This document shows, one piece after another, positions 4,065 to 43,087 of a stretch of 44,740 bases of DNA. The position numbers were made by a program, and so were the translations under genes. The stretch is from a virus (Duplodnaviria; Heunggongvirae; Uroviricota; Caudoviricetes), in the IMG/VR virus record IMGVR_UViG_2617271072_000006, positions 1 through 44,740 of that record. One strand, given 5' to 3'. The notes beneath the pieces are model-generated. The model saw nothing but the letters and a program-made list of their open reading frames with translations, was not told where the DNA came from and ran no database searches. Every line of letters starts with the position of its first letter. Position 1 is the first letter of the stretch.

Positions 4065-4678
4065 TTATCTAAAAGTCTTTCCACTTTTAACATCTAGGTA
4101 TATTCTGTTCGACAACGTCATTCCTCCGCAATATGTGAAATAGATGTTTTCACCCTTATTGCTTGATGCCATCCACCCTCCGATTTCCTTAAAATCGCTT
4201 TCCGTGCAGACCCCTTCATTTATTAACTTCCTAGCTGCCGAAGAAAACTCTTTTTTGTATATACGGTAGTCATCAGATCCTTTGATTAAAGTATCATCTC
4301 CGCTCGCATTTTCAGCAGGATCTGATGGCCTTTCACTGCTAAGATCACTAAGTTTAACCCATTCTGAAAACTTGCCATTAACGATTCCATTTTTTCTTGT
4401 GCAGGATTTATTACCTTCTTTAATATATTCGCTTTCCCCTCCAACACATGAGGCTGAATATGGCTCAGTTATACGAACCCATTCACCTTTTTTTCTAGAA
4501 AATCTACGCCTTCCCTGAAAAATAGTTTCCCAGCCACTCCACATTTACTTGAAGGGCAGGTATGTCTTTCCGTTCGATCAACAACAACCCATAGTTTTGA
4601 TTCATTTTTTGCCATTGCCGATGGTATTTGAGATGAGACAATTAACGTAAGCCCTAAAATTAGTATTGATTTTTTCAT
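4065..4678 (-). CDS. Secreted protein with Sec signal peptide and possible SH3b-like region; frameshifted as assembled
   Basis: ORFs 4469-4678 (signal peptide MKKSILILGLTLIVSSQIPSAMA) and 4065-4544 join into one ~205-aa protein if the T7 run at 4488-4494 were T8. Confidence 0.5.
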
Positions 4679-4976
4679 TGTAATTTCCTTTTACTTTTTA
4701 CAAAGCGTTTAATCATGGCTGATTATCTCTAAGTGTAGTAACAGCCTTGTGCGAAACATGTTACCAAATCGCCATTTCAGTGTATCCGCAGTTAGGCTGC
4801 CACTTCAAGGATTCCTAATTACATGGTACGTAAGCGTAAAATCCCGTTGGTTGGCGGGTAATAACTCTGATCAAATCTCCCTTGTCTTTTGCTCTTACGT
4901 ATGCAGCTCTTGTGTATTCAACCCAGGCCTCCAGTTCAGCAATACGCTTACTTCCATCCGAGATAACACCTTCTAC

Positions 4977-5201
4977 TCACGCTGCTCGTTGAGTTTTGAT
5001 TTTTGCTGTCTCCAGCTCAACACGCAGTTTCCCCACCGTTAGCGCAATATCCTCGTTCTCCTGGTCGCGGCGTTTGATGTATTGCTGGTTTCTTTCCCGT
5101 TCATCCAGCAGTGTCAGCACAATCGATGGTGTTACCAGCTCATGGAAAAAGGTCCGCGTCAAATCCCCAGTTGTCAGGCATTGCCTGCTCTGCCGCTTCA
5201 C
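4977..5201 (-). CDS. Hypothetical coiled-coil-like ORF; doubtful as a stand-alone gene
   Basis: 74-aa ORF with GTG start and no clear RBS; same frame continues with protein-like sequence for 53 codons after an in-frame TGA at 4977-4979. Confidence 0.3.
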   Translation of the reverse strand: MKRQSRQCLTTGDLTRTFFHELVTPSIVLTLLDERERNQQYIKRRDQENEDIALTVGKLRVELETAKIKTQRAA

Positions 5202-5225
5202 GCAGTGCCTGAGAGTGAATTACGC

Positions 5226-5447
5226 TCACTTCGAACCTCTCTGTTTACTGATAAGCTCCAGATCTTCCTGGCAACTTGCACAAGTCCGACAACCCTGAAC
5301 GGCCAGGCGTCTTAGCTCATCTATGGGATCGCCACACTCACAACAATGAGTGGCAGATACAGCCTGGTGGTTCAGGCGGCGCATTTTTATTGCTGTGTTG
5401 CGCTGTAATTCTTCAATTTCTGATGCTGAATCAATGATGTCTGCCAT
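5226..5447 (-). CDS. TraR/DksA-family C4 zinc-finger protein (lambda orf73-like)
   Basis: 73-aa ORF with CCECGDPI...CRTCASCQ four-Cys motif typical of TraR/DksA C-terminal zinc fingers. Confidence 0.7.
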   Translation of the reverse strand: MADIIDSASEIEELQRNTAIKMRRLNHQAVSATHCCECGDPIDELRRLAVQGCRTCASCQEDLELISKQRGSK

Positions 5448-5838
5448 CTTCCATTAATCCCTGAATTGTTGGTTAATACGCTTGGGGGTAAATGCGAGCA
5501 ATAAAAAAGGAGCCTGTAGCTCCCTGATAATTTTGCTTTTCATGTTCATCGTTCCTTAAAGACGCCGTTTAACATGCCGATTGCCAGGCTTAAATGAGTC
5601 GGTGTGAATCCCATCAGCGTTACCGTTTCGCGGTGCTTCTTCAGTACGCTACGGCAAATGTCATCGACGTTTTTATCCGGAAACTGCTGTCTGGCTTTTT
5701 TGATTTCAGAATTAGCCTGACGGGCAATGCTGCGAAGGGCGTTTTTCTTGCTGAGGTGTCATTGAACAAGCCCCATGTCGGCAAGCATAAGCACACAGAA
5801 TATGAAGCCCGCTGCCAGAAAAATGCATTCAGTGGTTG

Positions 5839-6030
5839 TCATACCTGGTCTCTCTCATCTGCTTCTGCTTTCGCCACCATCATTTCCAGCTTTTGTGAAA
5901 GGGATGCGGCTAACGTATGAAATTCTTCGTCTGTTTCTACTGGTATTGGCACAAACCTGACTCCAATTTGAGCGAGGCTATGTGCCATCTCGATACACGT
6001 TCTTAACTCAACAGGAGATGCTTTGTGCAT
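5839..6030 (-). CDS. Hypothetical protein, lambda orf63-like
   Basis: 63-aa [26 protein letters not shown]... in the position and overlap pattern of lambda orf63 upstream of exo. Confidence 0.75.
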   Translation of the reverse strand: MHKASPVELRTCIEMAHSLAQIGVRFVPIPVETDEEFHTLAASLSQKLEMMVAKAEADERDQV

Positions 6031-6191
6031 ACAGCCCCCCGTTTATTATTTATCTCCTCAGCCAGCCGCTGTGCTTTCAGGGGATTTCTGATAACAGAAA
6101 GGCCGGGAAATACCCAGCCTCGCTTTGTAACGGAGTAGACGAAAGTGATCGCACCTACCCGGATATTATCGTGAGGATGCTTCATCGCCAT
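6003..6191 (-). CDS. Hypothetical protein, lambda orf60a-like
   Basis: 62-aa [29 protein letters not shown]..., overlapping exo start as in lambda. Confidence 0.75.
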
Positions 6192-6862
6192 TGCTCCCCA
6201 AATACAAAACCAATTTCAGCCAGTGCCTCGTCCATTTTTTCGATGAACTCCGGCACCATCTCGTCAAAACTCGCCATGTACTTTTCATCCCGCTCAACCA
6301 CGACATAATGCAGGCCTTCACGCTTCATACGCGGGTCATAGTTGGCAAAGTACCAGGCATCTTTTCGCGTCACCCACATGCTGTACTGCACCTGGGCCAT
6401 GTAAGCCGACTTTATGGCCTCGAAACCACCGAGCCGGAACTTCATGAAATCCCGGGAGGTAAACGGGCATTTCAGCTCAAGGCCATTGCCGTCACTGCAT
6501 AAACCATCGGGAGAGCAGGCGGTGCGCATACTTTCGTCGCGATAGATGATCGGGGATTCAGTAACATTCACGCCGGAAGTGAATTCAAACAGAGTTCTGG
6601 CGTCGTTCTCGTACTGTTTTCCCCATGCCAGCGCCTTAGCATTAACTTCCGGAGCCACACCGGTGCAAACCTCAGCCAGCAGGGTGTGGAAGTAGGACAT
6701 TTTCATGTCAGGCCACTTTTTTCCGGAGCGGGGTTTTGCTATCACATTGTGAACTTCTGAAGCGGTGATGACGCCGAGCCGTAATTTGTGCCACGCATCA
6801 TCCCCCTGTTCGACAGCTCTCACGTCGATTCCGGTACGCTGCAGGATAATGTCCGGTGTCAT
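6182..6862 (-). CDS. exo: Exonuclease (Red alpha)
   Basis: 226-aa ORF matching lambda Exo as recalled ([37 protein letters not shown]...). Confidence 0.97.
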
Positions 6863-7644: not shown

Positions 7645-7649
7645 CCGTT

Positions 7650-7946: not shown

Positions 7947-8021
7947 GGCTGAACTCCTGAAAATGGCTGTGAAAATATCGCCCGCGAAATGCCAGGCTGA
8001 TTAGGAAAACAGGAAAGGGGA

Positions 8022-8432: not shown

Positions 8433-8496
8433 GCTGCGGATCTAAGCGGTCATCGCAACGGTGAAGTTATAAATTTTTGTGATACCAACATCGATG

Positions 8497-8816: not shown

Positions 8817-10419
8817 TTAATTTATCTTTTCAACATTTCCATGAATCAACAAGTCGTAGGCAAGAAATAGTTTCCTATACTGGGTTTTTAAATTGTCAAC
8901 GTCGCATGCCTTGAATTGAACAAACGCTTCTTTTTTAACATAATCTTCAATCTCCTCTTTGGGGATATTTTTTATGTTCTTAATGACTATAGACAATTCT
9001 TTGTACTTTTTGAACTTTGCATCCTTTATATCTTTGATGTTGGTGTAAATTTTATTTGCATTGATTTTATCTAAGGTGATTTTATTGAGCAAGTCGTCTA
9101 GTTTTCCGTGGCGTTCAATGCGTTGATTTAGTTTTAACACATATTTAGCTGGCAAACTTAACTCTTTCAAATTACATGAGGTTATAGTTTTTGAAAATGG
9201 AAGTTGTAATGAGTTTACTGAACCTAATATGAAATCTATGGCTAATTTATTAGATATTTCATTTTTATTAAATAAGTAGTCTTCAAGATAATTTATTTCT
9301 TTAACTTGTGTGAATACATACTTTTTATCGCCTAGAGCAACAACTAAATTTTTTCCTTGTTTAACACTTTCTTCAAGTCTGTCTAAGTCAGAAGGTGAAA
9401 CCAATAGAGTATCTAAGTGCCCTTTTTCACCCTCATTAATGATAAGTGTTTTAATGGCTCTTTGATACCTTAAAACATCATAAGGTGAGAGCCCTTCATC
9501 AACAGCACTGATCTCATCATAGATCTGTTTATAGTTATCTGTTTTAACAGATGTATATGTAATTTGTAGCTGTTGATCGGTAATCTGTTTTGGTACTACT
9601 TCCTGTTCATTCTCTTTATATTCAATCAAAATTATTCTTTCAGCTGATTTTCGACCATCTTCTCTAGGTAGTTGTGAGGAAAAATCAGAAAGAAGTTTCT
9701 TTACATTCCTGTCAGTTAAAGAATATCCAAGAAAAACTATTGGATTTTTAATCATGTTAGATAGTATCTTGGCACTAATGAGTATAGATTTGTTGTCATA
9801 TTTTTCGTAATCATCTTTATTTATGATTATTGAGTGTGGATCCTTTATATCACCATGTATTTTGTATAACTCACTCCAGCCAATAGTATCTTCGAAAAAA
9901 CCATTATTTCCAATATAGAGTTTTGGAGTTATATTTTGCTCTTGAAGTAAATTTTCTATGAAAGCATCATAATTTGTAGTGATGATTATCTTGGCCTTTT
10001 TTATTAATGTTTTAAATGATGCTAATTCATCAAGATTTACATCCTTTCTGATTGTGTTATTAGAAAATCTTTGGCATATGGCGTATTTAAATGGTGAAAT
10101 ATCTTCACTAAAAACCCTCTTGGCATCTAGTCCATTTAATTTTAATTTGCCAGTCCTAAACAATAGATTGTAATCATTTTCAATTTTACTTGCTGCCTCT
10201 GTATAAATCTTATGATCGATATCATTATCACTGTTATTTTTATGTGATTCTTTTATTGTTAAAAGATAACTATAGAAATCATTTGTGGGATTTGTTATTT
10301 TCCAATACTCGTTTAATAGCTCTTCCCACGTTGGGTAGTTCTCTAAATATATTTTTGAAATGCCTGAGCCAATAAAGACTATTGGGTAATTTTTGAATTC
10401 AAAATTTTTTTTTTGACAT
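8817..10419 (-). CDS. SIR2-like (SIR2_2/ThsA-type NADase domain) protein with uncharacterised C-terminal region; N-terminus frameshifted as assembled
   Basis: ORF 8817-10163 carries IIITTNYD, YKIHG and VFLGYSLTD motifs; the same frame upstream encodes the FIGSGIS glycine loop but has no start codon; ATG at 10419 with RBS is out of frame by one base across a T10 run (10405-10414). Confidence 0.7.
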
Positions 10420-10531: not shown

Positions 10532-11223
10532 CTACCCATGTTTTCTATATGTCTGTGGCATGCTCCCAATAACTTTCCCAAATATAAATACCCGATTCAT
10601 TTCGTCTTTTTCGATCGGGTCCCACGGTGAGTAGCTCTTGTTATCAGAGATAACCAGCAGCTTATCCTTCATCATTTGCAGGCGCTTTACATGGGCTGTG
10701 TCGTCGTACAGAAACGCATAGATACCATCACCGTCGAAAGATTTAACAGTGATATCAACGAACAGAAGATCACCTGGTTCGATCGTTCCTGACATGCTGT
10801 CACCGCGTACGTTAATGATGCGGATATTTTCTGCCTTCCTGCCATCGAACATGTGACGAGCATCGTCAAACGAGTACTCAACCGAGCGTAGGACTTCTAC
10901 AAACTCACGGTTGATGACACCCGGCCCAGCACTGACTTCTATATCAAGAACGTCAATTTTGAAGTATTTGGAATGGTTGACAGCAGGCTTCCCTGATTGT
11001 TGACCGTCATTTCTCATCGGGCCTATGCCTGATGAGAGCCACTCTGTTCGAACACCCAATGCATTAGCTATTTCAACAATTTTGTTGAGCCGCGTGCGTT
11101 GCCGCTTGTCAGTCTCCAGATTGTGGGTTGAGCTACGCCAGACGCCTTTGCAAGAGCGCCTTGAGACATTCCAGATTGTTCCATCGCTAGGTTTAAGCGA
11201 TCAGCAAGAGTTTCTTTTTTCAT
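10532..11223 (-). CDS. cI-like prophage repressor (N-terminal HTH + C-terminal S24 LexA-type peptidase domain); frameshifted as assembled
   Basis: HTH ORF 11068-11259 (QGALAKASGVAQPTIWRL) and peptidase ORF 10532-11059 (GDSMSGTIEPGDLLFVD...VKRL...K) join if the T4 run at 11080-11083 were T5; likely ATG at 11223. Confidence 0.8.
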
Positions 11224-13845: not shown

Positions 13846-13944
13846 CGGGCAAAGAGGCAATTATTCATTATGAGTAACTTTCTAAATTTTTTTGAGCCAG
13901 ATTAGTGGTCTTGGATTCAGTTTACGTCTCAGATACTGAGAAGA

Positions 13945-14049: not shown

Positions 14050-15069
14050 ATGTGTTACAGTAATGTTACAGATCGTGATCTTATGGGGCAAATTGCTACT
14101 AAACTAAATGACTATCGAAACCCTCCTCAAGGTGGCATGAGCATTGATCATGTTAATCGATGGATTAATCAATTTGAGTTAACTGATAGGCGATTTGTCT
14201 TAGAGGAAACGGACCGATTAATGGGGATTGGATACTTTTCTGAGAACGACTATCGCAGGGTTATTAGTAGTATCGCCACTGATGAGCAAAATGAAAGTTT
14301 CTTTCAAACTGCAGCGTTTCTCGATATTCAGAACCAAGGTACCAGTCAATCTGAGTTTTTGGATTTACTTCGAGAAGATTGTGTAGAAGAATTCAACGTT
14401 GTGACCAGACTTTCACAACGTCAAAGAGTTAGTTCATTCCGTGAATTTATTTACGTTGACGATGTTTTATTCTCCGGAGCTAAGGCAATCAATGATTTAA
14501 TTTGGTTTATTGAGCACTTTAAACTCCAAAATATTACAATATTGGTGTACTTTTTAGGTGGGCACACATATTCAACATGGAAGATAAAAGACCAACTTGA
14601 ACGAAGATTTGCGGGCAGAAATATTTCAGTTGGCGTTGGTGGAGGTGAGTTTGTATTTGTTGAAAATAAACTCCGAAATAGTTCGAATTCGGAGGTTTTA
14701 TGGCCAAAAGCGCAAAGTGTATCAATACCTGAATGGGCTGACGGTCAAATACATTATTTAGGAACATATCGAAACGGTTACGTCGCGAATAAAATTTTTC
14801 CTGATGAGCAGAGACGTGATCGTTTTGAAACTATTCTGACAAAAGTTGGGTTTGATATCCTTGGTCATAGTCAAAATCCCTCTGCTGTCATAAAGCCCTT
14901 AGGCTTTTCAACTTTCAATGGTGTTGGGTTTGGCGGAACTATCTTTACTTTCAGAAACTGCCCAAATAATACCCCTCTCGCGTACTGGTGGGGAACTTAT
15001 CTTCGAACAGGAAATAGAGCTCTGGATTGCTGGTATCCACTTATGAAGCGTAATGTGTATAATCGGTGA
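14050..15069 (+). CDS. Phosphoribosyltransferase-fold (type I PRTase-like) protein, function unknown
   Basis: 339-aa ORF in an AT-rich island; residues 133-147 FIYVDDVLFSGAKAI fit the PRPP-binding signature of type I PRTases; AGGA RBS; stop lies 3 nt before the NADAR ATG. Confidence 0.5.
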   Translation: MCYSNVTDRDLMGQIATKLNDYRNPPQGGMSIDHVNRWINQFELTDRRFVLEETDRLMGIGYFSENDYRRVISSIATDEQNESFFQTAAFLDIQNQGTSQSEFLDLLREDCVEEFNVVTRLSQRQRVSSFREFIYVDDVLFSGAKAINDLIWFIEHFKLQNITILVYFLGGHTYSTWKIKDQLERRFAGRNISVGVGGGEFVFVENKLRNSSNSEVLWPKAQSVSIPEWADGQIHYLGTYRNGYVANKIFPDEQRRDRFETILTKVGFDILGHSQNPSAVIKPLGFSTFNGVGFGGTIFTFRNCPNNTPLAYWWGTYLRTGNRALDCWYPLMKRNVYNR

Positions 15070-15071
15070 TC

Positions 15072-15682
15072 ATGAGCTATAGACTATACCTGTTTCACAA
15101 CACAGTTTCTTTCAGGAAAACCACCGAGAAATGGGGTGGTCTTTCCAACATGGCCAAAGGATATCCGCTCTTCGTTAATGGTATACCCATTCAATCGAGT
15201 GAAATTCTTTACCAAGCATGCCGATATCCAGACTATCCAGATATCCAAAGGGTTATTATTACCCAAGCCAACCCTTACGAAGCTAAACAAACCGCCAGAA
15301 CCTTCGAGGCCAAAACCCGTACTGGTTGGGAAAAAATCGAGTTTCGGTAATGAAATGGTGTGTCTGCGTTAAGCTTTGCCAGAACTGGGAATCGTTCTTC
15401 GCGCTATTGGATAGCACAGGAGATCATGACATTGTTGAGCACTCAGAGAAGGACCAATTTTGGGGGGCTAGTAAGGACTCCGAAGGTAACTTTTATGGCA
15501 TGAACGTGTTAGGTCGTATCCTTATGGATGCGAGAGATATTGCAAGAAAGAAGGGGCCTGCAGGGTTTGCTACGATACCGCCGCTACCCTTGGATAGGTT
15601 TCTTCTGCTCGGGGAGCAAATACGTGATGTCACTTTCTCTCCACCACCGATGGATTCAGGGCAAAGCTTATCGCTTTTTTAA
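15072..15682 (+). CDS. NADAR (YbiA-like N-glycosidase) domain protein; frameshifted as assembled
   Basis: ORFs 15066-15350 and 15326-15682 together align to YbiA as recalled (LSNMAKGYP...SSEILYQACRY, then WEK..VMKW...IVEHSEKDQFWGA...GMNVLGRILMDAR); frames join if the A6 run at 15331-15336 were A7. Confidence 0.75.
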
Positions 15683-23986: not shown

Positions 23987-23997
23987 CTGAGGTAATT

Positions 23998-26050: not shown

Positions 26051-26064
26051 TCAGGAGAAATACG

Positions 26065-27267: not shown

Positions 27268-27315
27268 TCACTCAGGGGCGCGGAACCGCGCCCCTGTTCT
27301 GACGGGTGAAGAATC

Positions 27316-27516: not shown

Positions 27517-27518
27517 GT

Positions 27519-29302: not shown

Positions 29303-29464
29303 GAATCTTCATGTTTGTGAAACCTGTTAAAGGGCGGTCAGTTCCTGACCCTGCCCGCGGCGACCTTTTGCCCGCCGAGGGGCGAAATGTTGATGAGAAC
29401 AACTACTGGCTGCGCCGTGAAGCAGCGGGTGATATCCGGCGCGTGAATGAAAAGGTGAATACCG

Positions 29465-31316: not shown

Positions 31317-31636
31317 TTGAGCTTGTACTTAAAAAACCGATCATCGCCCACAAAGAAACACTGCATGTGTTGGAAATACGTGAGCCTACGTATGACGAGA
31401 TTGAGGCGCTGGGGTTCCCTTTCTCTGTTTCGCCTGATGGTGGTATGAAAATGGACAGTCAGGTGGCGCTGAAATATATCCCGCTTCTGGCCGGGATCCC
31501 GCGCTCGTCTGCAGCGCAGATGACGAAGCTGGATATTTTCAAGGCAGGCATGATTGTAATGCGTTTTTTTACCGGCTTGGAGACGGAAGAGACCTCCGGA
31601 AGCGATTCTACAATGTCGCGTGGTTCTGGAAATTAA
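31313..31636 (+). CDS. Tail assembly chaperone
   Basis: 107-aa ORF between tube and tape-measure genes. Confidence 0.55.
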   Translation: MIELVLKKPIIAHKETLHVLEIREPTYDEIEALGFPFSVSPDGGMKMDSQVALKYIPLLAGIPRSSAAQMTKLDIFKAGMIVMRFFTGLETEETSGSDSTMSRGSGN

Positions 31637-31720
31637 ACCCCCTTGAACTTCGCCGGACGGCTATTTCTCACTTTGCTGATCTGGAGGCAGAGGCCGTCCG
31701 TATAAATGAGGAGATGAAGC

Positions 31721-33628
31721 ATGGCTGATAATTTTCAGCTGAAAGCCATCATCACCGCCGTTGACAGGCTATCCGGCCCGCTTAAAGGTATGCAGCGTCA
31801 GCTTAAGGGATTTCAGAAAGAAGTCTCCAGCCTTGCTCTGGGCGCTGCCGGGGCTGGTACTGCAATAATGGGGGCACTGGCACTCCCTGTAAAATCAGCC
31901 ATCACCCTTGAATCGAAGATGGCTGATGTCCGCAAAGTGGTGGACGGTCTGGATACGCCGGATGCATTTAAGGCCATGACGGAGCAGGTACGCGCTTTGT
32001 CTACAGAGCTTCCCATGTCTGCAGACGGGATCGCGGAAATTGTGGCGGCTGGCGGTCAGGCCGGGATTGCACGTGATGAACTGATGCAGTTTGCCACTGA
32101 TGCGGTGAAGATGGGCGTGGCCTTTGATACAACGGCTGAAGAGTCCGGGCAGATGATGGCCCAGTGGCGTACTGCGTTTAATATGACACAGGATGAAGTG
32201 GCTGGGCTGGCTGACAAAATCAACTACCTTGGTAATACCGGCCCGGCGAATGCGAAGAAAATCTCCGATATTGTTACGCGTATTGGTCCTTTAGGTGGTG
32301 TTGCTGGTGTGGCTTCCGGCGAAATCGCGGCGATGGGGGCAACCATTGCCGGGATGGGCGTGGAGTCAGAAATTGCCGCCACAGGGATCAAGAACTTCAT
32401 GCTTTCCCTGACCGCGGGAAATTCCGCGACAAAATCGCAGAAACAGGCATTGCGTTTTCTGCGGATCAATCCGAAGAAATTAGCTACTGATATGCAGAAA
32501 GATGCCCGGGGCACCATGCTGTCTGTACTGGATGCGATGGCTAAAGTGCCTAAAGAAAAACAGGCAGCTGTGCTGAATGCCCTGTTCGGGAAAGAGTCTC
32601 TGGGCGCGATAGCACCTCTGCTGACTAACCTTGATTTGTTGCGTACCAACTTCAGGCGGGTTGCGGATTCCCAGCAATATGGCAGTTCGATGCAGAAGGA
32701 ATATGCTTCGAGGGCAGCGACGACGGAAAACCAGCTTTTACTTCTGCAAAATCAACTTGATGCCATTTCTTCCACGCTGGGGGAAACGTTTCTTCCTGAG
32801 GTTAATGATGGTCTTGAAGCGGTAAAACCGCTCCTTGAGGAAGTGAGAACGTTTTGTCCGTGAAAACCCGGAGCTCGTTAAGACCATTGCTAAAATCGGT
32901 CTGGCCTTACTGACGGTGGGAGCCGCTGCAGGCTCTTTGTCCAGAATTATGAAAGTTCTCGGCGGTGTGATGAATATGACGCCTGCTAAGGGGCTGATTG
33001 CTCTTCTGGTTGGTGGCGCTTACCTCATTATTGATAACTGGGAAACCGTAGGTCCTGTCATAAAAAGTCTGGCACGTGGTGGATGAAACGGCGCAGGCGA
33101 TGGGGGGGATGGGAAACTGTTCTGAAAGCGATTGCCCTGTTTATGGCAACCAAATGGGTTGCTGACGTTACCAAATCCATTACCGCAGTGACCAGAGAGA
33201 TGCGTACGCTGGGGAAGGTATCGGCAGAAACGGGATTGATGGGGAAAGGCCGCGGCTTTATCGGGAAGGCCGGGGTATATGGTTTTCTGGGAACCCTGAT
33301 ATATGAGCCGGTTAAAGATACTCTGGAAAGTGTTGTTCCTGAAGATACGGTTAACTGGCTGGATAATAAAGGGCTGTTTCTGGCTTCAGACTGGACGCCT
33401 TTTTTTGATCGTAAAGAGTACGAGCAGTATCAGGCCAGCCTGAGTCAGTACAAACCCAATGTTCCGCTGTTGAATCCATCTTCTTCCATGACACAGCACA
33501 GCGAGCTGAAAGTCACGTTCGAGAATGCTCCGCCAGGTATGAAGATAATTGATGTACCGGGAAAAGCCGATCCCCTGATGAAAATCACGCACGATGTGGG
33601 GTATTCCCCTTTTCGTTTTCCACGATAA
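31721..33628 (+). CDS. Tail tape measure protein; two frameshifts as assembled
   Basis: ORF 31721-32863 and 33083-33628 are linked by an open frame 32856-33086 (VRENPELVKTIAKIGLALLTVGAAAG...); frame changes at the T4 run 32852-32855 and near 33071-33083. Confidence 0.8.
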
Positions 33629-33652
33629 CGCAGTCCTTTTTGAGGTCAGTCT

Positions 33653-35029
33653 ATGGATTTATCCTCATTTCCCACCCGACCTTCATTACTTTCGTCGTCT
33701 TCAGGCTGGCGTGACAGGCTTCAGGACGCGTCATTTCGCGGCGTGCCGTTTAAGGTTGAAGAAGAAAGTGCGGGAACCGGTCGCCGTGTGGAAACACATG
33801 AATACCCGAACCGCGACAAGCCCTATACCGAAGATCTGGGAAAAGTCACTTTCCGCCCGTCCATCACAGCTTATGTGGTGGGAGATGACTGCTTTGACCA
33901 GCGCGATCGCCTGATTGAAGCGCTGAATAAACCCGGTCCCGGCACGCTTGTCCACCCGACATATGGTGAGCTGAAAGTCTGTGTTGACGGGGAAGTTCGG
34001 GTCAGCACATCGAAAAGTGAAGGGCGTATTGTCCGCTTTGACCTGAAGTTTGTCGAAGCAGGAGAACTCTCTTACCCCACATCAGGTGCGGCGACGGCGC
34101 AGACGCTGATGTCATCCTGTTCTGCACTGGATGACTGCATTAGTGACAGCTTCAGCGGTTTCAGTATCGATGGTGTGGCGGATTTCGTGCAGAACGACGT
34201 TATCGGTAATGCCAGCATAATGCTGGGGTATGTTTCTGATGCGATGAAAGTGGTGGATTCTGCCGTATCGGATGCCGCCAGGCTGTTGCAGGGGGATATC
34301 TCGGTACTTCTGCCGCCGCCATCGTCAGGCAAAAATTTCGTTGAGCAGGTGCAGAAAATGTGGCGTACCGGGAAACGCCTTTATGGTAACGCCAGCGACC
34401 TGGTTACCATGATCAAAACGCTTTCCGGTGTCAGCCTCGGCAGCGATCTGCAACCGCGCGGCGTCTGGAAAACGGACAGTAAAACCACCGCCACGGCGAC
34501 GCAGCAGCGTAACGTGGTTGCCAGCACCCTTCGTACGACCGCAATCAGCGAAGTGGCGTATGCCGTCACCCGATTGCCTGCGCCAACAACTTCCGCGGTG
34601 ATGCAGAATTCCGCAGTGGGGCAGGCAACAACACCCGCGCAGAGCACTGGCTGGCCTTCCGTCACGCATCCGGCACTGAACAATGCACCGGCGGTGAAAA
34701 ACACGGTTGACCTGCCGACGTGGGAAGAACTGACTGACATTCGCGACACACTGAATACGGCAATTGATAAGGAGTTGTCCCGTACAACCAGTGATGCGCT
34801 GTTTCTGGCGCTGCGCCGGGTGAAAGCAGATCTGAATGCGGATATCAACACGCGCCTTGAACAGTCTGCACGGATCATTCAGCGCACACCGGATGAGGTT
34901 TTACCCGCGCTGGTGCTGGCGGCGACCTGGTTTGATAACGCGGCGCGTGACGCGGACATTATCCGGCGTAATGCCATTACGCATCCCGGCTTTGTGCCGG
35001 TGATCCCTCTGAAGGTGCCAGTGCAATGA
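33653..35029 (+). CDS. Mu gpN-like DNA circularisation / tail protein
   Basis: 458-aa ORF with DRLQDASFRGVPFKVEEE N-terminal motif; position between tape measure and baseplate hub. Confidence 0.7.
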   Translation: MDLSSFPTRPSLLSSSSGWRDRLQDASFRGVPFKVEEESAGTGRRVETHEYPNRDKPYTEDLGKVTFRPSITAYVVGDDCFDQRDRLIEALNKPGPGTLVHPTYGELKVCVDGEVRVSTSKSEGRIVRFDLKFVEAGELSYPTSGAATAQTLMSSCSALDDCISDSFSGFSIDGVADFVQNDVIGNASIMLGYVSDAMKVVDSAVSDAARLLQGDISVLLPPPSSGKNFVEQVQKMWRTGKRLYGNASDLVTMIKTLSGVSLGSDLQPRGVWKTDSKTTATATQQRNVVASTLRTTAISEVAYAVTRLPAPTTSAVMQNSAVGQATTPAQSTGWPSVTHPALNNAPAVKNTVDLPTWEELTDIRDTLNTAIDKELSRTTSDALFLALRRVKADLNADINTRLEQSARIIQRTPDEVLPALVLAATWFDNAARDADIIRRNAITHPGFVPVIPLKVPVQ

Positions 35030-36105
35030 ACGACAATGTCACGCTACGGGTAAATGGCCGGGAGTGGAATGGCTGGACATCGGTGCGCATCGGTGCCGGT
35101 ATTGAACGGCTGGCGCGGGATTTCAGTGTGGAGATCACCCGCCAGTGGCCGGGAGATGAGGGTATCACCACGCTTCAGCCGCGCATTAAAAACGGTTCAA
35201 AAGTGGAAGTGCTGATTGGTGATGAGCTGGTGATCACCGGCTGGGTGGAGGCGACGCCCGTTCGTTACGATGCCCGTTCGGTCAGCACCGGTATTGCCGG
35301 ACGTAGTCTGACGGCTGACCTGATTGACTGTGCAGCCGAACCGACACAGTTTAACGGACGCTCGCTGGTGCAGATTGCGCAGGCGCTTGCTGCGCCTTTC
35401 GGCATTGAGGTGGTGAACAGCGGTGCGCCGTCGGGTGTTATTCCTGATGTTCAGCCTGATCACGGTGAAACGGTGATTGAGGTAATCAACAAAATACTCG
35501 GTCAGCAGCAGGCACTGGCTTACGACGACCCGCACGGCAGGCTGGTGATTGGCGGTATTGGCTCAACGCGGGCACATACTGCGCTGGTACTCGGGGAAAA
35601 CATCCTTTCCTGTGATACGGAGAAGAGTATCCGGGAGCGGTTTTCTGTTTACCAGGTGGCGGGGCAGCGTGCCGGAAACGACGATGATTTCGGTGAGGCC
35701 ACCACCACCGCGCTGCGGGCCCGCACAGAGGACGCATTTATTGCCCGTTACCGTCCGATGTATATCAGGCAGACAGGGCAGGCTACGGGGGCAGGCTGTA
35801 TTGCCCGTGCGGACTTTGAAGCCAGACAACGGGCGGCGCGGACGGATGAAACCACCTATGTGGTGCAGGGCTGGCGACAGGGTAACGGTACGCTGTGGCA
35901 GCCCAACCAGCGGGTGATTGTCTTTGATCCGGTCTGTGGTTTCGACAATACCGAACTGCTTGTTTCGGAAGTCACGTTTACTCAGGACCAGAACGGCACC
36001 CTGACGGAAATCCGTGTCGGCCCACCTGATGCTTATCTGCCTGAACCCGAAGCCCCCGGCGCGCGAAAAAAGAAAAAAGCCAGAGTACAGGAGGACCCGT
36101 TCTGA
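35026..36105 (+). CDS. Mu gpP-like baseplate hub protein
   Basis: 359-aa ORF; conserved order N-P-gp45-gp46-gp47-gp48 of Mu-type tails. Confidence 0.7.
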   Translation: MNDNVTLRVNGREWNGWTSVRIGAGIERLARDFSVEITRQWPGDEGITTLQPRIKNGSKVEVLIGDELVITGWVEATPVRYDARSVSTGIAGRSLTADLIDCAAEPTQFNGRSLVQIAQALAAPFGIEVVNSGAPSGVIPDVQPDHGETVIEVINKILGQQQALAYDDPHGRLVIGGIGSTRAHTALVLGENILSCDTEKSIRERFSVYQVAGQRAGNDDDFGEATTTALRARTEDAFIARYRPMYIRQTGQATGAGCIARADFEARQRAARTDETTYVVQGWRQGNGTLWQPNQRVIVFDPVCGFDNTELLVSEVTFTQDQNGTLTEIRVGPPDAYLPEPEAPGARKKKKARVQEDPF

Positions 36106-36653
36106 TGAGGACGATTGAAGCCATGCAGCGACAACTCCTCGGCCTGATTGGGCGGGCCGTGGTGAAAAGCATCAGTGCCGCCACGAAATGTCAGACCGTG
36201 GATGTGTCTCTGATTGCCGGTGAACCCAAAGCCGGGGTTGAACATCTTGAACCCTACGGTTTTACCGCAAGGGCAAACAGCGGTGCGGAAGCGGTGGTGT
36301 TGTTTCCGGATGGCGACCGTTCTCATGCGGTGGTTGTTACGGTGTCGGACCGGCGCTACCGCCTGAAAGGGCTGCAGACGGGTGAGGTGGCTGTCTATGA
36401 CGATCAGGGGCAGTCCGTGACGCTGACCCGGGAGGGGATCGTGGTGGACGGTGCAGGTAAAACGATCACGTTTCGCAATGCGCCTAAGGCTCGTTTTGAA
36501 ATGGACCTGGAAGTGACCGGACAGGTGAAAGACCTGTGCGACTCCAGCGGCACCACCATGTCAGCGATGCGGCTTGCCTATAACGGGCATCGTCACAGAG
36601 AGAACGGTCAGGGCAGTAACACCGACAAACCTGATAAAGCGATGGAGGCATGA
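36105..36653 (+). CDS. Baseplate assembly/spike protein (Mu gp45 / gpV-like)
   Basis: 182-aa ORF following the hub gene. Confidence 0.7.
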   Translation: MRTIEAMQRQLLGLIGRAVVKSISAATKCQTVDVSLIAGEPKAGVEHLEPYGFTARANSGAEAVVLFPDGDRSHAVVVTVSDRRYRLKGLQTGEVAVYDDQGQSVTLTREGIVVDGAGKTITFRNAPKARFEMDLEVTGQVKDLCDSSGTTMSAMRLAYNGHRHRENGQGSNTDKPDKAMEA

Positions 36654-37078
36654 TGGAACTGTGGCTGACGGTGAACGGTAAACGCACCTGCGCTAGCGCA
36701 CCGCTGGATCCGCTGACCCGTGCCGTGGTGATTTCCCTGTTCACCTGGCGGCGGGCTGAACCTGATGACAATGCCGACGTCCCGATGGGATGGTGGGGGG
36801 ATACCTGGCCTGCGGTACAGAATGACCGTTACGGCTCCCGACTGTGGCTGCTTCAGCGCAGCAAACTGACCAATCAGCTGGTGCAGACGGTAAGGGGGTA
36901 TATCCGCGAATGCCTGCAATGGATGATTGATGACGGCGTGGTGTCCCGTATTGATCTGGATATCCGCCGCACCGGGATTAATGAACTGGGTAACAGTATC
37001 ACTCTCTGGCGTCGTGACGGACCGGTAATGATTTCTTTTGATGATCTGTGGAGTGCGATAACGCATGGCGGACAGTGA
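36650..37078 (+). CDS. Mu gp46-like baseplate protein
   Basis: 142-aa ORF in conserved position. Confidence 0.7.
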   Translation: MMELWLTVNGKRTCASAPLDPLTRAVVISLFTWRRAEPDDNADVPMGWWGDTWPAVQNDRYGSRLWLLQRSKLTNQLVQTVRGYIRECLQWMIDDGVVSRIDLDIRRTGINELGNSITLWRRDGPVMISFDDLWSAITHGGQ

Positions 37079-38123
37079 ATTTCAGCGCCCGACGCTGGCA
37101 GAAAATATCAGTATGCTCCGTAACGATTTATTCGCCAGGCTGGACGTCAGCGACACGCTCCGGCGCATGGATGAAGACGTGCGGGCAAAGGTGTATGCGG
37201 CGGCGCTGCATACGGTTTACGGTTACATCGATTATCTGGCAATGAACATGCTGCCTGACCTGTGCGATGAGTCCTGGCTGGCGCGACATGCTGCGATGAA
37301 ACGGTGTCCGCGCAAGGGGGCCACGGCTGCCAGCGGGTATATGCGCTGGGAAGGTGTCAGCGATGGCCTGAAAGTGACCGCCGGGAGCGTGATTCAGCGC
37401 GATGACCTGGTTCAGTACACGGCAACTGCCGATGCAACCAGCTCCGGTGGTGTCCTGCGCGTGCCGATCGCCTGCTCAAGTGCAGGCGCGGTCGGTAACG
37501 CTGACGACGGTACGGCATTAATCCTGGTCACGCCGGTGAATGGTCTGCCGTCTTCCGGTGTGGCTGACACCCTGACAGGCGGATTTGATACTGAAGAGCT
37601 GGAAACGTGGCGCGCCCGCGTCATTGAGCGGTATTACTGGACGCCTCAGGGCGGGGCTGACGGGGACTATGTCGTCTGGGCTAAAGAAGTGCCCGGCATT
37701 ACCCGCGCATGGACATACCGACACTGGATGGGAACGGGGACTGTCGGTGTGATGATTGCCAGCAGTGACCTGATTAATCCCATTCCGGAAGAGTCAACGG
37801 AAACGGCGGCAAGACAACATATCGGGCCATTGGCCCCGGTGGCAGGCTCTGATTTGTATGTATTCAGGCCGGTGGCGCATAAAGTGGATTTTCATATCCG
37901 CGTGACGCCGGACACACCGGAAATACGGGCTGCCATCACCGCCGAGTTGCGTTCGTTCCTGCTGCGTGATGGTTATCCGCAGGGAGAACTGAAGGTGTCA
38001 CGTATCAGTGAAGCGATTTCCGGTGCGAACGGGGAATACAGCCATCAGTTGCTTGCACCGGCAGACAATATCTCCATTGCAAAAAATGAGCTGGCAGTTC
38101 TGGGGACGATTTCATGGACGTGA
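37065..38123 (+). CDS. Baseplate J-like protein (Mu gp47-like)
   Basis: 352-aa ORF in conserved position. Confidence 0.75.
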
Positions 38124-38698
38124 CAAACGATGATTATATCCGTCTGTTGTCGGCACTGTTGCCGCCCGGTCCGGCGTGGTCAGTCAGCGATCCGGCGATT
38201 GCCGGTGCGGCACCGTCATTAACCCGCGTTCATCAGCGTGCGGATGCCCTGATGCGGGAGCTGGATCCGCGCACCACCACTGAACTGATAAACCGCTGGG
38301 AGCGTCTGTGCGGTCTGCCGGATGAATGTATTCCCGCAGGGACACAGACCCTTCGCCAGCGTCAGCAACGGCTGGATGCGAAGGTTAATCTGGCGGGCGG
38401 CATCAATGAGGATTTTTACCTTGCACAGCTTGCTGCCCTGGGCAGACCAGACGCCACTATCACGCGATACGATAAAAGCACGTTCACCTGCTCATCGGCC
38501 TGTACTGACGCAGTGAATGCGCTGGAATGGCGGTATTACTGGCAGGTCAACATGCCAGCTGCCACCAACACCACCTGGATGACATGTGGCGATCCCTGTG
38601 ATTCCGCACTGCGTATCTGGGGCGACACCGTTGTCGAGTGTGTGCTTAACAAACTCTGCCCGTCGCATACCTACGTAATTTTTAAATATCCGGAGTAA
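38114..38698 (+). CDS. Mu gp48-like tail protein
   Basis: 194-aa ORF between baseplate J and tail fibre genes. Confidence 0.7.
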
Positions 38699-38701
38699 TC
38701 C

Positions 38702-39457
38702 ATGCATCGTATAGACACGAAAACCGCGCAGAAGGATAAGTTCGGCGCGGGTAAGAACGGTTTTACCCGTGGTAACCCCCAGACCGGCACACCTGCCACC
38801 GATCTGGATGATGACTACTTTGACATGTTGCAGGAGGAGCTTTGCGGCGTGGTGGAGGCATCCGGTGCCAGCCTGGAGAAGGGGCGGCACGACCAGCTGC
38901 TTACCGCGCTTAGTGCGCTACTGTTAAGCCGCAAAAATCCGTTTGGCGATATCAAATCGGACGGCACGGTGAAAACGGCTCTCGAAAACCTTGGTTTGGG
39001 AGAAGGCTCTGCATTACCTGTTGGTGTGCCTGTTCCGTGGCCCTCAGCCACTCCGCCAACAGGCTGGCTAAAATGCAACGGAGCAGCTTTTTCTGCTGAA
39101 GAATACCCGGAACTGGCAAAGGCTTACCCGACAAATAAATTGCCTGATTTACGCGGTGAATTTATTCGTGGCTGGGATGACGGACGTGGAGTGGATGCCG
39201 GGCGACAATTATTATCTTCACAGGGGGATGCAATAAGAAATATTGAGGGATTCGCAGATGGCGGGATCGGCATGTCTTTTGATGCAATCAGAGGGGCTTT
39301 TTACGATGCAGGAACACGATCAGCGAGAATGCCGAATAACACAACTGATATAGGCAAAACCGATGACCTTGGATTCGACGCCTCTCGTGTCGTGCCAACA
39401 GCTAATGAAAACCGTCCACGTAACATCGCCTTTAATTATATTGTGAGGGCTGCATAA
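38702..39457 (+). CDS. Tail fibre protein, constant N-terminal part plus variable C-terminal tip 1 (Mu S / P2 H-type)
   Basis: 251-aa ORF; first 102 aa identical to the inverted copy at 40452-41036; tip contains PWP...[23 protein letters not shown]...[17 protein letters not shown]. Confidence 0.85.
38981..39004 (+). other. Din-invertase-type crossover site (gix/hix/cix-like) at the constant/variable junction of tail fibre gene 1
   Basis: CTCGAAAACC-TT-GGTTTGGGAGAA: dyad AAAACC..GGTTT with TTCTC-type outer half-sites, resembling hix/gix consensus as recalled. Confidence 0.6.
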
Positions 39458-40050
39458 TGAAACCTGTTTTTGATGAAAATGGGCTGGCTACAGTGCCGGG
39501 TGATATGCGTTGTTATTATTATGATGCAGTAACGTCTGAATATACGGGCTGGTCTGATGAATATATTAATACTGGCGTAAGTATGCCCGCCTGTTCCACT
39601 GGTATTGACCCGGGCGAATACATTCCGGGGCAAGTGGCAGTATTCACGGGTAAGGGATGGAGCCATGAAGAAGACCATCGCAATGAGACTGTTTACTCAA
39701 CAGAAAATGGCGCAGCTGTTACAGTGGATTATATCGGTGCCATCAAAGACGGTTATGTCACGCTTTCACCGTTAACGCCATATGATAAATGGGATGGTGA
39801 GAAATGGGTGACAGATACTGAGGCACAACACGATGCCGCAGTAGAAGCGGCAGAAGCACAGCGCCAGTCACTGATTGATGCAGCAATGGCTTCCATTAGT
39901 CTGATTCAGCTGAAATTACAGGCCGGGCGGAAACTGACGCAGGCAGAAACAACCCGGCTTAACGCTGTGCTGGATTACATTGACGCGGTGACGGCAACAG
40001 ATACCAGCACCGCGCCGGATGTCATCTGGCCTGAACTGCCGGAGGCGTAG
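39457..40050 (+). CDS. Tail fibre assembly chaperone (Tfa) for tip 1
   Basis: 197-aa ORF directly after fibre tip 1; C-terminal [11 protein letters not shown] motif shared with the convergent tfa. Confidence 0.8.
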
Positions 40051-40450
40051 GCCATTCAATATCGGGTGCTGTTGAAGTATCAACACGCATCAGCAGCACA
40101 CGGTATTTCTTCCATTCGGTGAGAGTTGAAGTTTCTTCATCAGTTGCGATATCAGCATCAACAGCATCCTGACGCCAGGATATTTCACTGTCAGCTTTTT
40201 CCCGTAATTGGGATTTTTTAACTTCAGCAATAGCTATTAATTCCTTTTTGGTCGGCTGAGGAATATCTATCAGTGCTGGTTTTCCATTCAGTGTTCCAAT
40301 CTGTTTTCCTGGTGGAATATCCATAAATAACTTTTTATGTTCTTCCTCACTGACTATTACACCATCATCAGGCCACAGACCTGATGCCTCAAATTTTTCT
40401 TTCTCCGATATGGGGAAAAAGCCATTTGCTTTAGCGCTCCATACGTACAT
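40022..40450 (-). CDS. Tail fibre assembly chaperone (Tfa) for tip 2
   Basis: 142-aa ORF convergent with and overlapping the other tfa by 29 bp; C-terminal [11 protein letters not shown] motif. Confidence 0.8.
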
Positions 40451-40451
40451 A

Positions 40452-41036
40452 TCAATACCCCACCGCTATAATGTCCACATTAAATCCTCCGGGACCTGCC
40501 TGCCAGATGCTGGCCCCTGTTAATGATTTTGTTTGATGAACAACCGCCACATTTGCTGGCGATTGTGTTTCAGTTGTTACAGTACCGATATCATTCCAGT
40601 TAATTGAGATGGAATAGTTCGTTGTTGTAAACGACCGGGGGAAAGTTATGTGTCTTACATTGGTGCCAATAGGAAATCCAAGATAAACACGCTGAATTAT
40701 CATTCCTCCAGGTAACATAACCCAGTTAGCACCTTCTCCCAAACCAAGGTTTTCGAGAGCCGTTTTCACCGTGCCGTCCGATTTGATATCGCCAAACGGA
40801 TTTTTGCGGCTTAACAGTAGCGCACTAAGCGCGGTAAGCAGCTGGTCGTGCCGCCCCTTCTCCAGGCTGGCACCGGATGCCTCCACCACGCCACAAAGCT
40901 CTTCCTGCAACATGTCAAAGTAGTCATCATCCAGATCGGTGGCAGGTGTGCCGGTCTGGGGGTTACCACGGGTAAAACCGTTCTTACCCGCGCCGAACTT
41001 ATCCTTCTGCGCGGTTTTCGTGTCTATACGATGCAT
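40452..41036 (-). CDS. Tail fibre protein of the inverted module, same constant N-terminus with different C-terminal tip 2
   Basis: 194-aa ORF; residues 1-102 identical to fibre 1, then unrelated C-terminus. Confidence 0.85.
40734..40759 (-). other. Second Din-type crossover site, inverted relative to site 1
   Basis: TTCTCCCAAACC-AA-GGTTTTCGAGAG, exact reverse complement of the site at 38981-39004, at the constant/variable junction of fibre gene 2. Confidence 0.6.
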
Positions 41037-41039
41037 GGA

Positions 41040-41624
41040 TTACTCCGGATATTTAAAAATTACGTAGGTATGCGACGGGCAGAGTTTGTTAAGCACACAT
41101 TCGACAACGGTGTCGCCCCAGATACGCAGCGCGGAATCACAGGGATCGCCACATGTCATCCAGGTGGTGTTTGTGGCGGCTGGCATGTTGACCTGCCAGT
41201 AATACCGCCATTCCGGCGCATTCACCGCGTCAGTACAGACCGATGAGCAGGTGAACGTGCTTTTGTCGTATCGCGTGATGTTGGCATCTGGTCTGCCCAG
41301 GGCAGCAAGCTGTGCAAGATAAAAATTCTCGTTGATGCTGCCCGCCAGGTTAACCTTCGCATCCAGCCGTTGCTGACGCTGACGAAGGGTCTGTGTCCCT
41401 GCGGGAATACATTCATCCGGCAGACCGCACAGACGCTCCCAGCGGTTTATCAGTTCAGTGGTGGTGCGCGGATCCAGCTCCCGCATCAGGGCATCCGCAC
41501 GCTGATGAACACGGGTTAATGACGGTGCCGCACCGGCAATCGCCGGATCGCTGGCTGACCACGCCGGACCGGGCGGCAACAGTGCCGATAACAGGCGGAT
41601 GTAATCATCGTTTGTCACGTCCAT
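41040..41624 (-). CDS. Mu gp48-like tail protein, second (inverted) copy
   Basis: 194 aa, 6 substitutions relative to 38114-38698 (~97% identity). Confidence 0.7.
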
Positions 41625-42673
41625 GAAATCGTCCCCAGTACCGCCAGTTCGTTTTTCGCAATGGAGATATTGTCCACCGGTGCAAGCAACTGATGGCTGT
41701 ATTCCCCGTTCGCACCGGAAATCGCCTCACTGATACGCGATACCTTCAGTTCTCCCTGCGGATAACCATCACGCAGCAGGAACGAACGCAACTCCGCGGT
41801 AATGGCAGCCCGTATTTCTGGTGTGTCCGGCGTCACGCGGATATGAAAATCCACCGTATGTGCCACCGGCCTGAATACATACAAATCAGAGCCTGCCACC
41901 GGGGCCAGTGGCCCGATATGTTGTCTTGCTGCCGTTTCCGTTGATTCTTCCGGAATGGGGTTAATCAGGTCACTGCTGGCAATCATCACACCGACAGTCC
42001 CCGTTCCCATCCAGTGTCGGTATGTCCATGCGCGGGTAATGCCGGGCACTTCTTTAGCCCAGACGACATAGTCCCCGTCAGCCCCGCCCTGAGGCGTCCA
42101 GTAATACCGCTCAATGACGCGGGCGCGCCACGTTTCCAGCTCTTCAGTATCAAATCCGCCTGTAAGGGTGTCAGCCACACCGGAAGACGGCAGACCATTC
42201 ACCGGCGTGACCAGGATTAATGCCGTACCGTCGTCAGCGTTACCGACCGCGCCTGTAGTTGAGCAAGTGATCGGCACACGCAGGACACCACCGGAGCTGG
42301 TTGCATCGGCAGTTGCCGTGTACTGAACCAGGTCATCGCGCTGAATCACGCTCCCGGCAGTCACCTTCAGGCCATCGCTGACACCTTCCCAGCGCATATA
42401 CCCGCTGGCAGCCGTGGCCCCCTTGCGCGGACACCGTTTCATCGCAGCATGTCGCGCCAGCCAGGACTCATCGCACAGGTCAGGCAGCATGTTCATTGCC
42501 AGATAATCGATGTACCCGTAAACCGTATGCAGCGCCGCCGCATACACCTTTGCCCGCACGTCTTCATCCATGCGCCGGAGCGTGTCGCTGACGTCCAGCC
42601 TGGCGAATAAATCGTTACGGAGCATACTGATATTTTCTGCCAGCGTCGGGCGCTGAAATTCACTGTCCGCCAT
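41615..42673 (-). CDS. Baseplate J-like protein, second (inverted) copy
   Basis: 352 aa, a few substitutions relative to 37065-38123. Confidence 0.75.
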
Positions 42674-43087
42674 GCGTTATCGCACTCCACAGATCATCAA
42701 AAGAAATCATTACCGGTCCGTCACGACGCCAGAGAGTGATACTGTTACCCAGTTCATTAATCCCGGTGCGGCGAATATCCAGATCAATACGGGACACCAC
42801 GCCGTCATCAATCATCCATTGCAGGCATTCGCGGATATACCCCCTTACCGTCTGCACCAGCTGATTGGTCAGTTTGCTGCGCTGAAGCAGCCACAGTCGG
42901 GAGCCGTAACGGTCATTCTGTACCGCAGGCAGGTATCCCCCCACCATCCCATCGGGACGTCGGCGTTGTCATCAGGCTCCGCCCGCCGCCAGGTAAACAG
43001 GGAAATCACCACGGCGCGGGTCAGCGGATCCAGCGGTGCGCTGGCGCAGGTGCGTTTACCGTTCACCGTCAGCCACAGTTCCATCAT
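42660..43087 (-). CDS. Mu gp46-like protein, second copy; frameshifted as assembled
   Basis: ORFs 42869-43087 and 42660-42947 correspond to the two halves of gp46; one G missing relative to copy 1 near 42925-42935. Confidence 0.65.

Follow-up and report, generated by a model that had tools for sequence, protein, structure and literature searches.

We conclude that the frame breaks in this prophage are very probably homopolymer-length consensus errors in a low-accuracy draft genome and not signs of a decaying prophage. The DNA analysed here (the window) comprises the final 44,740 bp of contig CBWN010000010.1 from the Escherichia coli ISC7 draft (GCA_000529855.1), up to the contig end; the contig is 109 kb long and terminates within a 4-kb repeat. 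Exact matches of its gene products place the window on this contig, and the names of the matching proteins include 'Escherichia coli ISC7'. The broken genes appear, from sequence comparison, to be miscalls because the error rate is equal in the adjoining chromosome and because no base substitutions accompany the indels.

Indels were called by aligning the window with intact references that are 99.7-100% identical to it: isolate 602 (L001), OkiPb01694 (L002), A3024 (L035), the B1S11 prophages (L004 and L005), HB-Coli0 (L032) and phage SfIV (L033), with 1 to 19 references per site. The window differs from these intact sequences by 21 changes in length, all of one base except for one of two bases; 18 are within 14 genes and 3 are intergenic (Table 1). 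The pervasive frame breaks reported in a preliminary description of this DNA are thus real differences from near-identical relatives. The pattern greatly exceeds what chance would produce. None of the reference copies has a frameshift in the genes that are broken in ISC7, and setting the 21 run lengths back to those of the references restores all of the full-length ORFs, among them those for TerL (577 aa), the major capsid protein (401 aa), the tail sheath (498 aa), the tape measure protein (635 aa), SIR2, NADAR and the repressor. A further apparent indel, in the gam-kil spacer, was not counted among the errors, being natural variation that other prophages share.

The preliminary description listed at least 14 breaks, a minimum that was borne out. 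Twelve of its positions are exact and two are off by about 15-30 bp: the TerL break, placed at ~22397-22401, is at 22384-22388, and the second tape measure break (~33071-33083) is actually two events, at 33062-33066 and 33102-33108. The break in what was called a cargo ORF (~16076-16083) was close to its actual position of 16080-16087. Seven more events had been overlooked (5146, 5742, 8474, 13887, 21714, 33102 and 43678).

Table 1. Features of the window, with each length difference given as the run in the window versus the run in the references
Coordinates	Strand	Feature or run	Context
1-1284	-	ybhC, host gene, 427 aa, intact	window begins at ybhC stop codon; identical to B1S11
1419-2489	-	lambda-type integrase, 356 aa, intact	
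4488-4494		T7 vs T8	early gene 4065-4678, minus strand, 204 aa intact; split into 69 aa + 159 aa
5146-5150		A5 vs A4	Ea22-like remnant; A4 in 15/15 references
5742-5746		T5 vs T4	codon 7 of 71-aa early gene; T4 in 19/19 references
7960-7963		A4 vs A3	gam-kil spacer; same variant in 7 other loci
8474-8478		T5 vs T4	intergenic
10405-10414		T10 vs T9	~codon 5 of SIR2-family gene 8817-10419, minus strand, 533 aa intact
11080-11083		T4 vs T5	CI-like XRE/S24 repressor 10532-11223, minus strand, 230 aa intact
13887-13893		T7 vs T6	intergenic, between P and PRTase-CE gene
15331-15336		A6 vs A7	NADAR gene ~15072-15682, 203 aa intact
16080-16087		T8 vs T7	160-aa hypothetical gene
21714-21715		CC vs C	intergenic, between HNH gene and small terminase gene
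22384-22388		A5 vs A6	large terminase (TerL) 22254-23986, 577 aa intact
25689-25693		A5 vs A4	HK97-type prohead protease, 216 aa intact
26410		G vs GG	major capsid gene 26065-27267, 401 aa intact
between 26483 and 26484		lone G lost, non-homopolymer	major capsid gene
26516-26520		A5 vs A6	major capsid gene
29511-29515		T5 vs T6	near start of tail sheath gene 29464-30960, 498 aa intact
32852-32855		T4 vs T3	tape measure gene 31721-33628, 635 aa intact
33062-33066		A5 vs A7, two-base loss	tape measure gene
33102-33108		G7 vs G6	tape measure gene
40733-40758		TTCTCCCAAACCAAGGTTTTCGAGAG, putative DNA-invertase crossover site	first prophage's invertible tail-fibre segment meets inverted second tail module
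40852-44740	-	second, inverted baseplate module	= B1S11 prophage at tRNA-Pro/yejM except two one-base deletions
42930		C vs CC	second gp46 copy
43678		C vs CC	second baseplate V copy

The frequency of events rises steeply with run length. Changes were found in 0.007% of runs of length 1, 0.04% of length 2, 0.06% of length 3, 1.0% of length 4, 0.6% of length 5, 12% of length 6 and 30% of length 7, and in the only run of 8 and the only run of 9 (1/1 each). The events had been described as confined to homopolymers. This is true of the 15 (of 21) that are in runs of at least 4, but not of the six that are in runs of 1-3. With three insertions in the host flank (below) included, the events comprise 13 insertions and 11 deletions, and in no case is the change in length a multiple of three. 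The events are also clustered, with three in a 107-bp stretch of the capsid gene and three in a 250-bp stretch of the tape measure gene (p ~0.004), which is consistent with local drops in read depth or quality. The extrapolated rate is ~2,350 indels per 5 Mb, and at such a rate too many essential genes would be broken for the cell to be viable.

The host chromosome next to the prophage is affected to the same extent. We compared the 6,255 bp (~6.3 kb) of chromosome upstream of the window on the same contig with 10 independent reference loci and found three homopolymer insertions (T4 to T5, A6 to A7 and A6 to A7) relative to 10/10 references. The density of indels is 0.48 per kb in the host flank (3 in 6,255 bp) and 0.47 per kb in the window (21 in 44,740 bp; binomial p = 1.0). 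One of the flank insertions splits the conserved host gene ybhI (477 aa), unbroken in each of the 10 reference loci, into pieces of 216 aa and 271 aa. ybhI is the only broken host gene in the 6.3-kb flank and is non-essential.

Substitutions are nearly absent from the same alignments. Relative to B1S11, there are three indels and no substitutions in the 6.3-kb host flank, three and none in window positions 1-6523, and two and none in 40852-44740; over all stretches matched to B1S11 (16.7 kb) there are eight indels and no substitutions. Similarly, window positions 22382-40747 differ from isolate 602 by nine indel events and two substitutions in 18.4 kb.

Most of the broken alleles are private to ISC7. 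At 20 of the 21 sites, every reference compared differs from the window, the exception being T7 at 4488. When the exact products were looked up among ~15 billion proteins, seven fragments with lengths that only the breaks can produce were found on the ISC7 contig alone: the 130-aa and 216-aa pieces of the capsid, the 448-aa piece of SIR2, the 478-aa piece of the sheath, the 380-aa and 181-aa pieces of the tape measure protein and the 137-aa piece of the protease. The 498-aa TerL and 161-aa repressor fragments are uninformative because they are widely called in other assemblies. The 216-aa ybhI fragment is present on 11 contigs in total, indicating that this tract either attracts errors in several data sets or genuinely varies.

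Beneath the indels, the element at the ybhC site combines an early region of lambda type with head and tail genes like those of phage SfIV. ybhC marks a lambda-type attachment site. Over 12.3 kb, the late region (window 21.7-34 kb) shares 97.8% identity with SfIV, and the Pfam families of the called genes agree with an SfIV/ST64B-like HK97-type head and Mu-like contractile tail. As in SfIV, SfII, SfI and ST64B, the late genes are arranged in the order small and large terminase, portal, protease, capsid, sheath, tube, tape measure and baseplate. In contrast to the SfIV group, the element has an early region resembling that of lambda, including a lambda-type integrase at the ybhC site, and bears SIR2, PRTase-CE and NADAR as cargo. 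Window positions 1-6523 equal a B1S11 region apart from three indels. In B1S11 the annotated genes of this region are int, xis, DUF2513, hypothetical proteins and TraR; no serotype-converting O-antigen modification gene (glucosyltransferase or acetyltransferase) is listed beside the integrase. The late region matches intact prophages at 99.9-100% identity, every module is present and collinear, and comparison with intact prophages revealed no IS insertions, deletions or lost modules. We infer that ISC7 most likely carries an intact hybrid prophage in which lambda-type integration, recombination, immunity and replication functions at ybhC accompany an HK97-like head and Mu-like contractile tail of the SfIV/ST64B type.

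Two explanations would make the frameshifts real. Selection on the prophage could have relaxed after lysogeny, leaving a genuine cryptic element with frameshifts in its repressor, packaging, head and tail genes. Cryptic prophages are frequent in E. coli, and the 14 broken genes include all of the essential structural genes. The annotation does resemble those of the defective E. coli prophages e14, Rac, DLP12 and Qin, in which structural and regulatory genes are broken. However, true cryptic prophages have large deletions, IS insertions, lost modules and substitutions, whereas the ISC7 prophage, unlike those four, keeps all of its modules and its near-identity to intact relatives, and its apparent lesions extend into host DNA. 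The adjoining chromosome has the same kind of indel at the same density, and thus the lesions are not prophage-specific; nor is coding sequence specially hit, since three of the 21 events are intergenic. Against decay there are also the 17 indel events found alongside only two substitutions in 35 kb of matched sequence and the restoration of all ORFs by run-length correction alone. We therefore regard a cryptic prophage as very improbable. The preference in the preliminary description for homopolymer error in the assembly over long-term decay is upheld, with four independent lines of evidence (the host-flank density, the near absence of substitutions, the dependence on run length and the private fragments) all in agreement.

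Alternatively, ISC7 could be a mismatch-repair-deficient mutator, in which homopolymer slippage is real, occurs throughout the genome and is tolerated in dispensable genes. Slippage in a mutator also climbs with run length and would strike host and prophage DNA alike, and ybhI, the sole broken host gene seen, is dispensable. But in mutation-accumulation studies of E. coli, mismatch-repair-defective lines gain more transitions than indels, whereas ISC7 has eight indels and no substitutions relative to B1S11. Nor are sites such as those of the six events in runs of 1-3, one of which is the loss of a lone G, favoured by slippage. Moreover, the events are clustered locally, and essential genes could not be spared at the extrapolated genome-wide rate. 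We consider a mutator even more improbable than a cryptic prophage.

We suspect that the errors arose from the sequencing chemistry. Most likely, the reads behind the assembly came from a flow-based platform such as Ion Torrent or 454. In flow chemistries the signal from a run grows with its length while the precision of the call drops, and runs are therefore over-called or under-called by one base, with single bases occasionally dropped. The ISC7 data resemble such errors in several ways. The one-base over- and under-calls become more frequent with run length, the indels occur in coding, intergenic, prophage and host DNA without substitutions, and the deposited annotation has many split gene calls. 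No departures from the flow-based pattern were found in the ISC7 data. The preliminary description had suggested either long reads or pyrosequencing. A long-read origin is unlikely because the 109-kb contig ends in a 4-kb repeat and the accessions belong to an early series (GCA_000529855.1, and CDL24589.1 onward); a flow-based short-read platform fits better. ISC7 may have been part of a Danish urine study. According to a secondary source, the Ion Torrent PGM was used in that study (Hasman et al. 2014).

The tract at 4488 might be a special case. It is located ~61 codons into the 204-aa ORF, and the length of the run sets the frame. The 204-aa product, encoded by the T8 allele, is found on at least 1,000 contigs and has no match in Pfam or PADLOC. 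The 159-aa product, which only the T7 allele encodes, is found on 77 contigs and its 69-aa partner on 15, including many NCBI surveillance assemblies, and T7 is also present in loci L007-L010. The break is thus a genuine minority allele in other assemblies and may be real in ISC7. The T7/T8 tract resembles phase-variable contingency loci, in that the two lengths found in independent isolates switch the 204-aa ORF off and on, a likeness limited to one of the 21 sites. We give not quite an even chance to the view that, at this site only, the T7/T8 difference reflects true polymorphism, perhaps with slippage as the switch, and that ISC7 does have T7. The occurrence of both alleles in independent assemblies favours this, but B1S11, which is otherwise identical to ISC7 over 6.5 kb, has T8. 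An error at 4488 is equally likely because 30% of the 7-base runs in the ISC7 assembly are altered, as is the only other run of more than 7 bases, the T9 of the SIR2 gene.

Near the end of the window, the tail region of the prophage is joined to a second baseplate module, within which both the window and the contig terminate. The junction contains a putative invertase crossover site that we take to resemble hix and gix sites. It is conceivable that the 4488 tract is a slippage on/off switch of a widespread lambdoid early gene and also that the head-to-head join of the tail modules at 40733-40758 is a true inversion between two prophages in ISC7, mediated by a tail-fibre invertase, and not an assembler mis-join. 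We think it unlikely that this joint reading is correct.

The significance of these findings is mainly in quality control. Many truncated, artefactual proteins have entered the deposited annotation of ISC7 and, through it, UniRef; examples are the pieces of the capsid (130 aa and 216 aa), of the tape measure protein (380 aa and 181 aa) and of ybhI (216 aa and 271 aa). Scans that score pseudogenes, defective prophages or broken defence genes (for example, SIR2 and NADAR) would be misled by this assembly. Such assemblies could be flagged without reads by the combination of indels without substitutions relative to a close relative, equal densities in host and mobile DNA, and a steep dependence on run length.

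The frame breaks in this prophage are changes in run length. All differences between the window and its nearest intact references were listed, and every site was then checked across all reference loci. Twenty-one length differences remained, 20 of which were seen in no reference. Eighteen of these events affect 14 genes and the other three are intergenic, and all full-length ORFs were regained once the 21 run lengths were reverted. One candidate in the spacer between gam and kil (A3/A4) is not an assembly error but a natural variant common to seven other loci. The preliminary description had located 14 breaks. Twelve of these positions were exact, those in TerL and the second one in the tape measure gene were off, and seven events had been overlooked. 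The statement that the breaks are confined to homopolymers holds for the 15 events in runs of at least four bases and not for the six in runs of one to three, which include the loss of a lone G.

The ORF map of the window is that of a prophage in which many genes are split. The left part resembles lambda, with ybhC, a lambda-type integrase, exo/bet/gam, a SIR2-family gene, a CI-like repressor, YdaS/YdaT, O and P, a PRTase-CE and NADAR pair, and Q with lysis genes. The SIR2-family gene adjoins the repressor and is a full-length match (778 bits) to the PADLOC candidate PDC-S25, and the PRTase-CE and NADAR pair is downstream of replication gene P; both are likely defence cargo of the prophage. 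A 74-aa Ea22-like ORF has no record in the protein collection, and four further candidate ORFs near 5-6 kb are absent from it. The late region shares 97.8% identity with Shigella phage SfIV and belongs, by sequence and gene order, to the SfIV/ST64B group; in the comparison with this group, no serotype-conversion genes were annotated next to the integrase. E. coli isolate 602 has a prophage that shares 99.9% identity with much of the window, and in its annotation every gene is intact, including TerL (577 aa), portal, HK97-type protease, capsid, sheath, tape measure and baseplate. Of the 12 substitutions relative to isolate 602, seven fall inside 530 bp that take in the small terminase gene and the beginning of TerL, and this cluster has the look of a small patch of recombination, not of error.

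Positions of the features discussed (window coordinates unless stated otherwise)
Feature	Position	Strand	Remark
Host flank	upstream of window		6.3 kb; vs B1S11, 0 substitutions, 3 indel events
Left segment	1-6523		6.5 kb; vs B1S11, 0 substitutions, 3 indel events
Late segment	22382-40747		18.4 kb; vs isolate 602, 2 substitutions, 9 indel events
Right segment	40852-44740		3.9 kb; vs B1S11, 0 substitutions, 2 indel events
Substitution-free vs B1S11	contig 58160-70937 and window 40852-44740		16.7 kb, two prophage segments included
99.9% identical to isolate 602	17459-40747		
100% identical to isolate 602	38000-40747		
ybhI A7 tract	contig 60808-60814; 2649-2655 of locus L027		
Spurious gene call	3746-3889		47 aa
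Lambdoid early gene	4065-4678	minus	204 aa when intact (T8)
T7 run	4488-4494		
gam-kil spacer variant	7960-7963		
SIR2-family gene	8817-10419	minus	
PRTase-CE and NADAR pair	14050-15682	plus	
Substitution cluster	21852-22381		
TerL break	22384-22388		previously placed at ~22397
TerL from internal ATG	22490-23986		498 aa
Capsid cluster	26410-26520		three events in 107 bp
Capsid stop codon	26455-26457		
Lost lone G	26483/26484		
Tape-measure cluster	32852-33108		three events in 250 bp
Second tape-measure break	33062-33066 and 33102-33108		two events
Facing tail modules	38702-44740		
Switch point	40733-40758		26 bp

Look-ups among about 15 billion proteins found fragments of the capsid (130 and 216 aa), SIR2 (448 aa), sheath (478 aa), tape measure (380 and 181 aa) and protease (137 aa) proteins on the ISC7 contig only; the 130-aa capsid fragment, which is out of frame, is on exactly one contig, CBWN010000010.1. 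The shortened TerL (about 1,000 other contigs) and a 161-aa repressor product (704 contigs) were rejected as evidence of privacy, since start-codon choices or other causes make them uninformative. The TerL calls reflect an inconsistent choice of start site in annotation and have nothing to do with the TerL frameshift. The T7 run lies in a naturally polymorphic tract of a lambdoid early gene. Its 159-aa and 69-aa products are found on 77 and 15 contigs, respectively, from independent assemblies, and the intact product is found on at least 1,000 contigs. T7 may be a real minority allele, and the T7/T8 tract could represent slippage-driven on/off variation.

Similar lesions are present in the host chromosome. 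The window is the final 44,740 bp of CBWN010000010.1 (109,154 bp; GCA_000529855.1), and its right end is thus the end of the contig; the deposited protein names give the strain as Escherichia coli ISC7. A spurious gene call on this contig gave 6,255 bp of sequence preceding the window, from ybhD to ybhJ, and the host comparison covers this flank only. Relative to ten independent E. coli loci, which agree with one another at the sites in question, the flank has three single-base homopolymer insertions, one of which (A6 to A7) breaks ybhI, a conserved host gene, into pieces of 216 aa and 271 aa. The density of indels is 0.48 per kb in the flank and 0.47 per kb in the window, so the process is not confined to the prophage. 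The 271-aa ybhI fragment is on 46 contigs in total and the 216-aa fragment is on 11; the A6 tract is therefore either recurrently miscalled or truly variable. The product of ybhC is on record in 61,436 blocks.

The fraction of runs that changed was 0.007%, 0.04% and 0.06% for runs of one, two and three bases, 1.0% and 0.6% for runs of four and five, 12% for runs of six and 30% for runs of seven, and the sole runs of eight and nine bases were both changed. With the three host-flank insertions counted in, there were 13 insertions and 11 deletions, none of which was a multiple of three. Such behaviour is known from flow-based chemistries. The capsid and tape-measure events are clustered (p about 0.004 by simulation), probably because coverage or quality dipped locally. 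The net changes of the clusters, -3 in capsid and 0 in tape measure, raise the alternative of compensating frameshifts. We rejected this alternative, as the intervening sequence is otherwise the same as in the references. Moreover, a stop codon comes after the first capsid deletion, so the net changes fail to restore function, and that both are multiples of three seems to be coincidence.

Summed over 35 kb, there were 17 indel events and only two substitutions, a ratio that matches no biological mutation spectrum that we know of. In mutation-accumulation work, E. coli defective in mismatch repair gain more transitions than indels. Extrapolated to 5 Mb, the rate would give about 2,350 indels, most of them frameshifts, and this is not compatible with a living cell. 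Nor do the lesions resemble those of a decayed prophage: they are not prophage-specific, and all of the modules are kept. B1S11 (chromosome NZ_CP117717.1) is a duck isolate from China that appears to be very closely related to ISC7.

The right end of the window has a different kind of anomaly. What had been described as a second copy of gp46 is part of a second tail module in inverted orientation, and the two modules face one another with a single invertible tail-fibre segment between them. The match to the isolate 602 prophage continues through this segment up to a switch point that resembles a DNA-invertase crossover site. About 100 bp follow that belong, in reverse complement, to the constant tail-fibre part of the first prophage itself, and the remainder is the same as the B1S11 prophage at tRNA-Pro/yejM save two deletions. 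This head-to-head arrangement is absent from the complete E. coli genomes in the collection. A genuine inversion involving two prophages could account for it, but a mis-join is more likely. An assembler path fits better because the short self-reverse-complement is by the crossover site and the contig ends in a repeat; such a path would have crossed the invertible segment in its flipped state before entering the paralogous copy.

The preliminary description had attributed the breaks to long-read or pyrosequencing error. The contig of 109 kb stopping inside a 4-kb repeat and the early accession series point to short rather than long reads. A literature search by strain name (ISC7) and accessions (CBWN01, CBWN00, GCA_000529855) found no paper on the sequencing of this strain. 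The IS/ISC strain series is presumably that of the Danish urine study of Hasman et al. 2014. According to a review, the platform of that study was Ion Torrent PGM; ISC7 presumably belongs to it.

By every testable measure, the breaks behave as homopolymer consensus errors. The preliminary description was correct both in its observation and in reading it as artefact: the lesions are common to the host flank, come without substitutions and depend on run length. We conclude that assembly error is by far the best explanation of the frame breaks and very probably the true one, and that the finding is an artefact and not biology.
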